A stretch of 18,551 nucleotides of DNA from a virus, in the UHGV virus genome UHGV-0121047; one strand, given 5' to 3'. Of this stretch, positions 11,029 through 11,828 are shown piece by piece (position 1 is the first letter of the stretch; every line of letters begins with the position of its first letter). Under the pieces are notes generated by a model that saw only the letters and a list, made by a program, of their open reading frames with translations, was not told the origin of the DNA and made no database searches. The position numbers and the translations under genes are program-made.

Positions 11029-11042
11029 CCAGTTTTGACAGA

Positions 11043-11109
11043 AGACCAATTACAGCAAACTTAATCTTATTCATCTGAAGGTAAATCGGACAAAGAAGAG
11101 ATTTGGTCT
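11043..11109 (+). repeat. Stem-flanked element A (left arm CAGAAGACCAATTACAGCAA, right arm TTGGTCTGG)
   Basis: 7-bp complementary arms 11043-11049 / 11103-11109 enclosing 53 nt; member of a 4-copy family in the tRNA array. Confidence 0.5.
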
Positions 11110-11122
11110 GGTCATTAAGAAT

Positions 11123-11196
11123 TGCGGGTATAGAGAAAGGGCGTCTCACATGTCTCATTAGCATGGTATCGGCAGGTTCGACTCCTGCACCCGCCT
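11123..11196 (+). tRNA. tRNA-Met (anticodon CAT), acceptor with 1:72 mismatch
   Basis: Anticodon arm CATGT-CTCATTA-GCATG, T arm GCAGG-TTCGACT-CCTGC, acceptor TGCGGGT/ACCCGCC (6 of 7 pairs), CCA encoded; initiator vs elongator vs Ile2 identity not resolved. Confidence 0.6.
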
Positions 11197-11209
11197 CCAA
11201 ATTTACAGA

Positions 11210-11268
11210 AGACCGTTTACAGCAATACTTATTAAATTTTTAGCGGAAAAAATTGAAAGATACGGTCT
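11210..11268 (+). repeat. Stem-flanked element B (left arm CAGAAGACCGTTTACAGCAA, right arm ACGGTCTGG)
   Basis: 7-bp complementary arms 11210-11216 / 11262-11268; the 28-nt left flank CAAATTTACAGAAGACCGTTTACAGCAA is repeated exactly at 11689-11716. Confidence 0.5.
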
Positions 11269-11283
11269 GGTAATACTAAACAT

Positions 11284-11357
11284 GGTTAGGAAGCACATAA
11301 GGTATGTGCGGTCGCCTGTTAAGCGAATGGCACAGGGTTCGAATCCCTGACTAACCG
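11284..11357 (+). tRNA. tRNA-Asn (anticodon GTT)
   Basis: D arm GCAC/GTGC, anticodon loop CTGTTAA, T arm CAGGG-TTCGAAT-CCCTG, acceptor GGTTAGG/ACTAACC, CCA encoded. Confidence 0.75.
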
Positions 11358-11369
11358 CCAAATTTAAAT

Positions 11370-11454
11370 GTGTCGTTATCCCGTAGATGGTAGCGGTGGG
11401 GACTGTAAATCCCTTGTCATTGAGACTCGGTAGGTTCGACTCCTACACGGCACA
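11370..11454 (+). tRNA. tRNA-Tyr (anticodon GTA), class II with long variable arm
   Basis: Anticodon arm GGGGA-CTGTAAA-TCCCC, 14-nt variable region, T arm GTAGG-TTCGACT-CCTAC, acceptor GTGTCGT/ACGGCAC, CCA encoded. Confidence 0.75.
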
Positions 11455-11462
11455 CCAACAAA

Positions 11463-11545
11463 GGTTATGTAGTTTAATTTGGTTAAAATACTCCCACGTA
11501 AAAGGATATTGGGAGATGATGTGAGTTCAAGCCTCATCGTAACCG
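11463..11545 (+). tRNA. tRNA-like gene with aberrant anticodon arm (6-bp stem with 13-nt loop); identity undetermined, possible pseudo-tRNA
   Basis: Good acceptor (GGTTATG/CGTAACC), D arm and T arm (GTGAG-TTCAAGC-CTCAT) and CCA, but the anticodon region CTCCCA-CGTAAAAGGATAT-TGGGAG carries about 8 extra nt. Confidence 0.4.
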
Positions 11546-11603
11546 CCAATTTTGAGAGGGCTATTTAGCCCCTCCCTTAAAGAGTTCTTACGAGTATTCT
11601 TTA

Positions 11604-11681
11604 AAGGAGCAGAAGACCAAATTCAGCAAGTTACTTAAAATTTCAAGCCAATTCAATTTTGAAAAATTTAAAACTTGGTCT
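11604..11681 (+). repeat. Stem-flanked element C (left arm CAGAAGACCAAATTCAGCAA, right arm TTGGTCTGG)
   Basis: 7-bp complementary arms 11604-11610 / 11675-11681 enclosing 64 AT-rich nt. Confidence 0.5.
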
Positions 11682-11698
11682 GGCTCAACAAATTTACA

Positions 11699-11828
11699 GA
11701 AGACCGTTTACAGCAAAAATTAAACAATCTATTTCTCGGTAAAGAAAAGGAGAAGGTTCGATTCCTTCACTCGACAGATGTCGAGTTGGTGTAATGGTAG
11801 CACTTAAGATGATAAACAACGGTCTGGT
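11699..11828 (+). ncRNA. Stem-flanked element D containing a circularly permuted tRNA-like domain (T arm, closed acceptor-like hairpin, D arm); candidate Y-RNA-like (YrlA-like) structured RNA
   Basis: 8-bp closing stem AGACCGTT (11701-11708) / AACGGTCT (11818-11825); inside, in this order: T-arm GAAGG-TTCGATT-CCTTC (11752-11768), hairpin ACTCGAC-AGAT-GTCGAGT (11769-11786), D-arm-like GTGT-AATGGTA-GCAC (11789-11803). Confidence 0.4.

Follow-up and report, generated by a model that had tools for sequence, protein, structure and literature searches.

What are the four stem-flanked elements that lie between the tRNA genes of the virus genome UHGV-0121047, and what gene, if any, do they serve? The stretch analysed here (18,551 nt; the window) was identified as a Felix O1-like myovirus (Felixounavirus) and carries on its + strand an array of 23 tRNA genes, as called by ARAGORN. 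A search with region 10700-12300 returned 279 phage records, of which 236 align over ≥80% of its length at 80-97% identity, and these records come almost without exception from Felixounavirus/Ounavirinae. An earlier sequence-only reading had described the elements, A to D, as structured small RNAs, processing signals, or mobile or recombination sites. Our interpretation, to which we assign a probability of about 0.72, is that A-D are small non-coding RNA genes, the cognate Y-RNA analogues of a Ro60-like protein encoded just upstream, because they form a family of + strand structures that is coupled to a Ro60-fold gene and has one tRNA-mimic member. Of the three options the first is supported; the Ro60-like gene and the tRNA-like module in D had been missed. 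Ro60-Y RNA particles occur in conserved form in organisms as distant as bacteria and humans, and the RNA partners have been identified for just a few canonical TROVE proteins; the divergent Ro60-fold family defined by DUF2828, which is very common in phages, here gains a testable RNA family with a defined signature.

Four elements with a common closing structure

The string AGAAGACC-N5-CAGCAA occurs four times in the window, always on the + strand (at 11040, 11207, 11611 and 11698), against a chance expectation of 0.16, and four copies were reached in none of 200 shuffles, so that the four-copy family noticed in the sequence-only reading is real. Common to all copies is the signature CAGAAGACC-N5-CAGCAA ... 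GGTCTGG, in which the 3' end reads NN-GGTCTGG and NN is complementary to the NN that follows AGACC, with AA/TT in A and C and GT/AC in B and D, as originally claimed. The exact repetition of the left flank of B in D is likewise correct: the 28-nt string CAAATTTACAGAAGACCGTTTACAGCAA is found identically at 11198 and 11689. The limits that had been given for the elements are a few bases off, and we place A at 11036-11114 (79 nt), B at 11203-11273 (71 nt), C at 11607-11686 (80 nt) and D at 11694-11830 (137 nt), with interiors, from CAGCAA to the 3' strand, of 44, 36, 45 and 102 nt respectively. All lie 335-1130 nt 3' of the stop codon of a DUF2828 gene, interleaved with tRNAs and behind the second of two promoter-like sites. 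Each fills a roughly tRNA-sized gap, 3-10 nt from its tRNA neighbours, and most tRNA junctions in the window (2-9 nt) have no element.

The closing stem, earlier put at 7-8 bp, proved to be the 7-bp inner helix of a larger structure, outside which lie an asymmetric 3x1 internal loop (5' AGA / 3' G) and a 4-bp outer helix. The layout from 5' to 3' is NNNC, AGA, AGACCNN, interior, NNGGTCT, G, GNNN. The sequence of the outer helix changes from element to element, with pairing intact throughout (TGAC/GTCA in A, TTAC/GTAA in B and D, GAGC/GCTC in C). A kink-turn was considered for the AGA/G loop and rejected, since the non-bulged strand has no tandem G-A. Neither ARAGORN nor the Rfam tRNA model, which describes a standard-order cloverleaf with an anticodon loop, calls any of A-D a tRNA, and Rfam 15 offers no family for them at the gathering thresholds or at an expectation value (E) ≤10. 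Weak matches (∼20 bits) to the Dictyostelium class I RNA were dismissed as mere look-alikes sharing a stem and an A-rich loop.

Conservation and covariation in related phages

As the sequence-only reading had proposed, we compared homologous regions of related phages, using 27 Felixounavirus-type loci from IMG/VR and GenBank that were anchored on the tRNA-Met between A and B and gathered without selection for structure. A-D were present at the same positions in all 22 full-length Felixounavirus loci, and the arms do change with compensation. The outer helix of B goes from TTAC/GTAA to TTGC/GCAA, a compensatory change seen on two different interior backgrounds. The outer helix of C has the variants GGGC/GCTC and GAGC/GTTC, in which pairing is retained via G-U, and in one relative (L149) an A-to-G change in the inner helix of A, giving AGACCGA/TTGGTCT, is again accommodated by G-U. 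In the private hairpin of each interior the stem is retained and the loop varies. As G-U pairing works only in the + strand RNA and not in DNA, these variants argue for constraint at the RNA rather than the DNA level. Y RNAs are ∼80-130 nt long and have paired ends that enclose a large internal loop; such an end-to-end stem is present here, and its helices are paired in every orthologue variant. The original caution that the AA/TT and GT/AC classes may merely reflect unit duplication was justified, and stronger evidence is provided by the outer-helix changes among orthologues and by dozens of unrelated stems in distant loci (see below). In the complete genome of the relative REP5 (88.9 kb), only the orthologues of A-D match our covariance model R1 (E 1e-8 to 0.02); there are no further copies, the next R1 match (E 0.08) overlapping an annotated coding sequence.

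A Ro60-like protein encoded upstream of the elements

The open reading frame (ORF) at 9286-10701 (+ strand), which stops 335 nt 5' of element A, encodes a 471-aa protein. Pfam assigns it DUF7788 (3e-43) and DUF2828 (1e-29) and gives no TROVE match; a sequence search of the PDB returned nothing significant, and the profile match to Ro60 reached only E 0.65. Since sequence searches gave nothing significant, kinship with Ro60 was established by fold search alone. An AlphaFold2 model built from 55 homologues (predicted local distance difference test, pLDDT, 89.9; predicted template modelling score, pTM, 0.89) was compared with the PDB using Foldseek, and the 11 best matches were all Ro60/TROVE proteins aligned over the full length (E 2e-8 to 9e-7, template modelling score 0.48-0.68). 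They come from Xenopus, human, Deinococcus (Rsr) and the Thermus phage phiLo and include 2i91, 1yvp, 2nvo, 9l5y and 9kop, and isolated vWA domains appear in the list only at E>2e-3. Residues D279, S281 and S283 of the DxSxS MIDAS motif are invariant in the 55 homologues. As modelled, the protein has the helical-repeat TROVE-type ring and the C-terminal vWA domain with MIDAS of Ro60/TROVE proteins, and we propose it as the partner of the RNAs. More than 2,800 DUF2828-type proteins were found at E≤1e-5.

A gene in this position has been studied in the phage Bas63, where gp130, encoded immediately 5' of the tRNA stretch, is reported to have a Ro60-like structure and to counter the ppl defence (PhageMaP preprint, PMC11482910). 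The authors of that preprint guessed that some annotated “tRNAs” are Y RNAs, naming no RNA. In the literature on DUF2828-type proteins with Y-like RNAs we found only this speculation.

An RNA family beside DUF2828 genes

When viral contigs were first scanned for the 14-base signature alone, most matches were single chance occurrences, and only three Felixounavirus contigs proved useful. We then used the protein as the guide and fetched 80 IMG/VR loci with DUF2828 homologues, mostly at 38-48% identity. Beside the DUF2828 gene in these loci the 9-mer TTACAGCAA is enriched, always in the context 5' (A/U)-AG-N5-(N)-[UA][AU]CAGCAA, 20-200 nt, N5-CU-G 3', in which the two N5 segments complement each other and have a different sequence at nearly every locus. 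A covariance model, R1, was built from 32 short elements and used as a detector; its E-values are rough, the calibration having been shortened. In the viral DUF2828 loci (708 kb) R1 gave 96 matches at E≤1, all on the strand of the gene, and in independent bacterial/archaeal assembly loci (33-42% protein identity, 508 kb), which may be phage or prophage DNA, it gave 94, again all on the gene strand. Control viral loci (858 kb), each containing a bare AGAAGACC-N5-CAGCAA, returned no match at E≤1. The RNA family thus occurs essentially only beside DUF2828 genes and on the same strand. Like Y RNAs, its members are co-oriented with and close to a Ro60 orthologue, the protein in this case being a fold-level relative rather than a Pfam TROVE protein. 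This one-strand bias and the covarying + strand structure support the view that the elements are structured small RNAs. The DUF2828 ORF is the only ORF of the window with homologues in the 155 distant element-bearing loci, and in 21 of 36 element-bearing loci there is no tRNA within ∼4 kb, which indicates that the tRNA setting in the window is incidental. About 40% of the DUF2828 loci have no R1 match at E≤1, the model being limited to short forms or the flanks having been cut.

Matches beyond the training set revealed new paired stems (AGAATCG/CGATTCT, AGGATTG/CAATCCT, GGGATAG/CTATCCC and, via G-U, AGGTTAT/GTAACCT) and the box variants CCGCAA, CAGCAC and CAGCAU. The family core is a closing stem of 7-8 bp, usually 5' AG-N5 / N5-CU 3' and then G; the single-stranded box YWC(A/C)GCAA comes immediately after the 5' strand of the stem, and the interior is variable. 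Short members (43-80 nt) consist, as A-C do, of stem, box and A-rich loop. Long members contain in addition, and in this order, a T arm (GGUUCRANYCC), a hairpin of 6-8 bp with a short loop and a canonical D arm (e.g. UAGCUCAGAUGGUAGAGC); this architecture, which is that of D, was found in 9 distant loci (L153, L159, L162, L172, L192, L203, L217, L222 and L225). Tandem arrays contain 2-6 units with different private modules, including complete tRNA mimics. At L192 3734-3834, the stem and a UUCAGCAA box surround a sequence resembling tRNA-Thr(UGU) in normal order (D, anticodon and T arms), which both ARAGORN and Rfam (52.9 bits) call a tRNA, so that the family includes permuted as well as unpermuted tRNA modules. 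In short members of L165, L170, L208 and L215, AGCAA stands two or three times in the loop (e.g. UACAGCAAACGAUACAAGCAAUUAUAAACUACGCAAAC), a repetition that hints at multivalent binding.

The array lies upstream of the DUF2828 gene in many loci; elsewhere it begins 32-55 nt beyond the stop codon. A minimal copy runs right up to the Shine-Dalgarno sequence and start codon (ATG) of this gene in at least 15 distant loci, as in AGATTTA-UAACAGCAAA...UAAAUCU-G-AAAGGAAAACAAAAUG and ...TAAATCT-G-AAAGGAAAACAAAATG. These minimal leader copies measure 42-50 nt (L154 3949-3991, L159 1759-1800, L205 3902-3948, L214 3901-3944, L161 2854-2895 and others). A minimal copy over the Shine-Dalgarno sequence suggests that the DUF2828 protein represses its own translation through the same site, and this overlap lends indirect support to the stem and box as the binding site of the protein.

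Element D and its tRNA-like module

Element D (11694-11830, + strand) is the long, tRNA-mimic Y-like RNA of the window, and its minimum free energy fold shows the helices described here (z -3.0). The outer helix is at 11694-11697/11827-11830, the inner helix at 11701-11707/11819-11825 and the box at 11709-11716. Within the interior follow, all on the + strand, a variable-arm-like hairpin (11728-11751), a T arm (11752-11768; GAAGG-UUCGAUU-CCUUC), a closed 7-bp acceptor-like hairpin (11769-11786) and a D arm (11789-11803; GUGU-AAUGGUA-GCAC). D alone among the four elements therefore has the YrlA-type tRNA-like domain in the order (V), T, closed acceptor-like stem, D arm; A-C have none. After artificial circular permutation ARAGORN accepts D over its whole length as a tRNA with a 38-nt “intron”. 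A true permuted tRNA gene was considered and rejected: the “anticodon stem” has 7 bp, spacers of 15-45 nt lie on each side, and there is no anticodon loop. Among orthologues the acceptor-like hairpin between the T and D arms changes from ACUCGAC-AGAU-GUCGAGU to ACACGU-UACG-GCGUGU, a compensatory replacement, and the T and D arms are nearly invariant, with a single D-loop change (in L137).

In REP5 (L001) the interval 1249-1379, corresponding to window ∼11648-11778, carries the public annotation “tRNA-Thr (GGT)”, a call of 131 nt covering the 3' end of C together with two-thirds of D from its 5' side; the gene at 11463-11545 is labelled tRNA-OTHER in other records, or the gaps are left empty. 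Such annotations are artefacts arising from the tRNA-like arms of D.

In the metagenomic relative L131 (IMGVR_UViG_2706796742_000001), a natural deletion joins the T arm of D to that of the downstream tRNA-Lys, taking out the 3' half of D, the sequence designated E below and most of tRNA-Lys. It looks like recombination between T-loop sequences.

Elements A, B and C and a possible fifth member

The remaining three elements are short Y-like RNAs, all on the + strand. Element A (R1 45.5 bits, E 1.6e-6) has its outer helix at 11036-11039/11111-11114, the AGA loop at 11040-11042 opposite G 11110, the inner helix at 11043-11049/11103-11109 and the box UACAGCAA at 11051-11058, followed by a private interior hairpin. 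Element B (52.6 bits, E 4e-8) has an outer helix at 11203-11206/11270-11273, an inner helix at 11210-11216/11262-11268, a box at 11218-11225 and an A/U hairpin with a GCGG loop as its interior. Element C (43.2 bits, E 5e-6) comprises an outer helix at 11607-11610/11683-11686, an inner helix at 11614-11620/11675-11681 and the box UUCAGCAA at 11622-11629.

We tentatively regard a further RNA, E (11829-11974, + strand), as a fifth family member. This 146-nt sequence directly follows D and has a closing stem of ∼23 bp (fold z -5.2); at 11930-11951 it contains a mini hairpin, ACAGACC-CUUUAGCAA-GGUCUG, that resembles the minimal family core. Relatives carry two allelic forms of E, in which the long stem is kept by covariation, and in L136 and L144 the mini hairpin changes in a compensatory manner from AGACC/GGTCT to AAACC/GGTTT. 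Neither R1 nor Rfam matches E.

Evidence against the proposal and alternative explanations

Several observations weigh against the identification of A-D as Y-RNA analogues. The canonical Ro60-binding motifs GGUCCGA, GNCGAAN0-1G and CGAA are absent from all four; the nearest approach is C-A-GAAG in the Felixounavirus 5' arm, and the window arms, (G/U/A)(A/G)C-A-GAAG, are one base too long for the canonical motif. The Rfam YrlA model RF02553 misses D even at E≤10 (10700-12800). A-D are thus Y-like but fall short of YrlA on two counts, motif and model score. Conversely, the canonical Ro60 locus of mycobacteriophage Bxz1 has no R1 match. There is also no BLASTP similarity between the DUF2828 protein and the Bxz1 Ro60, so that homology of the former to Ro60 is a matter of fold alone. 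Because the stem guided the selection or the fitting of alignments A2 and A3, their pair counts overstate covariation; the A2 pair statistics are circular, since its sequences were picked for having the stem, and were not used as proof. In Bas63 the tRNA-region genes are mostly non-essential (PMC11482910), and L131 has lost the 3' half of D, which shows that D is dispensable.

The alternative that survives best, though we consider it improbable, is that the elements act purely in cis on the operon mRNA, as operators for translational autoregulation or as stability or processing determinants of the DUF2828 transcript. It is favoured by the minimal leader copies of at least 15 distant loci, which abut the ribosome-binding site and start codon, but the window elements lie 335-1130 nt beyond the stop codon, behind a second promoter-like site and among tRNAs, and an operator has no need of arrays of 2-6 units with private modules and complete tRNA mimics. 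A cis-acting role is possible for the leader copies and unlikely for the downstream modular array, and cis and trans roles are compatible.

It is highly unlikely that the elements are spacers or processing signals of phage tRNA arrays (guides for RNase E, RNase III or RNase P), as the second option of the sequence-only reading would have it. Their placement in tRNA-sized gaps 3-10 nt from tRNAs invites this explanation, which is largely refuted by the 21 of 36 element-bearing loci without a tRNA within ∼4 kb; moreover, most tRNA junctions of the window do without an element, and the family tracks the DUF2828 gene instead of tRNAs. We give similarly little credence to decayed or rearranged tRNA pseudogenes without a function of their own. 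D does have tRNA T, acceptor and D arms and is publicly annotated as a 131-nt “tRNA-Thr”, and the L131 deletion illustrates T-arm-mediated recombination between D and tRNA-Lys; but A-C lack tRNA features, the combination of permuted arms, closing stem and box recurs in unrelated phages (33-48% protein identity), stems are maintained by compensatory change, and the T and D arms of D are nearly invariant rather than neutrally diverged. Least probable of all is the third option, in which the array was shaped by miniature mobile elements with inverted repeats or by DNA recombination sites: despite the terminal inverted repeats and the duplicated 28-nt flank of B and D, the positions are fixed in 22/22 complete loci, the full REP5 genome holds no dispersed copies, 190/190 distant matches are on the gene strand, some variants pair only through G-U, and the insertions that do vary among relatives belong to sequences other than the A-D family.

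Proposed mechanism and significance

If A-D are the Y-like RNAs of the DUF2828 protein, their transcription would start, jointly with that of the tRNAs, at the promoter-like sites 10720-10748 and 10811-10840, and they would be freed by RNase P and 3' trimming of the flanking tRNAs, across gaps of 3-10 nt, with their closed ends protecting them from exonucleases. The protein would bind the conserved stem and box, and the private interiors (hairpins in A-C, the tRNA mimic in D) might tether the ring protein to different partners or gate its cavity, a proposal made by analogy with the Ro60-Y RNA-PNPase complexes of Deinococcus, Salmonella and phage phiLo. RNase P cleaves the YrlA of M. smegmatis, and by analogy its cutting of D within the AGAU loop of the 7-bp acceptor-like hairpin is plausible. 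In phages with leader copies, the DUF2828 protein would repress its own translation via the stem-box site.

We see an even chance that a broader picture holds as a whole, in which DUF2828 proteins and “CAGCAA-box” RNAs constitute a second, much larger and undescribed Ro60-Y RNA branch over hundreds of phage lineages, with a protein programmed by the RNA array, autoregulation through leader copies, and use as an anti-defence or RNA-surveillance device during infection. At the same even odds, this branch would extend over T4-like vibriophages, Felix O1-like phages, many uncultured phages and prophage-like contigs, and its RNAs would include tRNA mimics. The elements can seed a covariance model of a new RNA family and open the way to asking what a tRNA mimic on the Ro ring does in infection. 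They also allow the mis-annotated “tRNA-Thr”, “tRNA-OTHER” and empty gaps to be corrected across hundreds of Felixounavirus genomes, many of which are candidates for therapy.

Putative transcription signals and neighbouring sequences

Two sigma-70-type promoter-like sites (10720-10748 and 10811-10840, + strand), each with 10/12 consensus matches, are the likely source of a polycistronic precursor for the tRNA/RNA array; we infer their promoter function. The TTGACA/TTTACA of the 5' arms was rejected as a promoter candidate, yielding two weak 9/12 sites with poor -10 hexamers and the motif inside a paired arm. On the + strand, a terminator scan found no terminator-like site at the closing stems of A-D; a single such site overlaps an element, on the − strand at the T arm of D. 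With A/U-rich interiors of 36-102 nt, A-D do not resemble intrinsic terminators, which are G+C-rich hairpins with a U run behind them.

Between the elements, Rfam finds a tRNA-like gene at 11463-11545 (45 bits) that ARAGORN missed; in relatives its orthologue is tRNA-Asp(GUC). In the window and in REP5 a 13-nt loop, CGUAAAAGGAUAU, without GUC, replaces the 7-nt anticodon loop, and compensatory changes are seen in the T stem. The gene may encode a tRNA variant that does not decode or that evades nucleases. Between this gene and C, at 11553-11606, lie two hairpins, GAGAGGGCUAUUUAGCCCCUCCC and then CUUAAAGAG...CUUUAAAGG. Further downstream, a strong promoter-like site (11/12; 12229-12257) is followed by ∼200 nt without an ORF or known RNA; this region (12214-12461) has only faint tmRNA-model matches, and a weakly scoring tRNA, tRNA-Arg UCU in relatives, lies downstream of it at 12462-12540.

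Comparison with known Y RNAs

In phages, Ro60 proteins accompanied by Y-like RNAs have been described where the protein is a canonical TROVE member, namely in mycobacteriophages, CcrColossus, Bacillus phage G and phiLo, and one tRNA-like RNA together with hairpin-type RNAs per locus is the pattern in all characterised bacteria. A close comparison is with the bacterial and mycobacteriophage Y RNAs YrlA and YrlB, which are bound by Rsr (Ro60). Like A-D, they lie on the same strand as, and within a few kb of, a gene for a Ro60-fold protein, have paired ends around a large loop with a single-stranded motif just 3' of the 5' strand, carry YUAY (here UUAC) after the stem, and occur as several RNAs per locus, of which D matches the tRNA-like type and A-C the simple hairpins. 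The arm order in YrlA is V arm, T arm, closed acceptor-like stem, D arm (PMC4201824). The differences lie in the protein, which here is DUF2828/DUF7788 and not Pfam TROVE, and in the box, YWC(A/C)GCAA instead of GNCGAAN0-1G, although it occupies the position of the canonical CGAA motif. Against RF02553, long members of the family give full-length sub-threshold matches (L217 38.9, L225 36.7, a second L217 element 28.7 and L159 24.7 bits) and a partial one (L222, 26.7 bits). The canonical Ro60 (gp220) locus of Bxz1, in whose phage group YrlA RNAs have been reported (Chen et al. 2014, PMC4201824), scores 32.5 bits, within the range of the long members, and all of these scores are below the gathering score of 69 bits.

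Vertebrate Y RNAs resemble the elements in size (∼70-140 nt), in a terminal stem where the protein presumably binds at a conserved asymmetric bulge or internal loop, and in a variable interior; they differ in having a GGUCCGA helix with a bulged C and a La-binding U tail, in being Pol III transcripts and in lying outside tRNA operons. Among phage systems, Yrl1/Yrl2 and phiRo60 of the Thermus phage phiLo (PMC12135203; 9KOP, 9L5Y) likewise combine a phage Ro60-fold protein with adjacent small stem-loop-stem RNAs, and phiRo60, for which a hijack of the host PNPase for counter-defence has been proposed (PMC12135203), is among the top structural matches of the window protein. The phiLo RNAs differ in that they were chosen by their CGAA motif, lie upstream of a canonical TROVE protein and have no reported tRNA-like module. 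Another close system is Bas63, from the same genus, in which gp130 occupies the same gene position directly upstream of the tRNA stretch (PMC11482910), its orthology to the window ORF being inferred from position and fold, not from alignment. In contrast to the guess made for Bas63, the candidates here are mostly gaps between annotated tRNAs and not the annotated tRNAs themselves, and they provide named candidates for the “possible Y RNAs” of a phage whose Ro60-like gene counters ppl.

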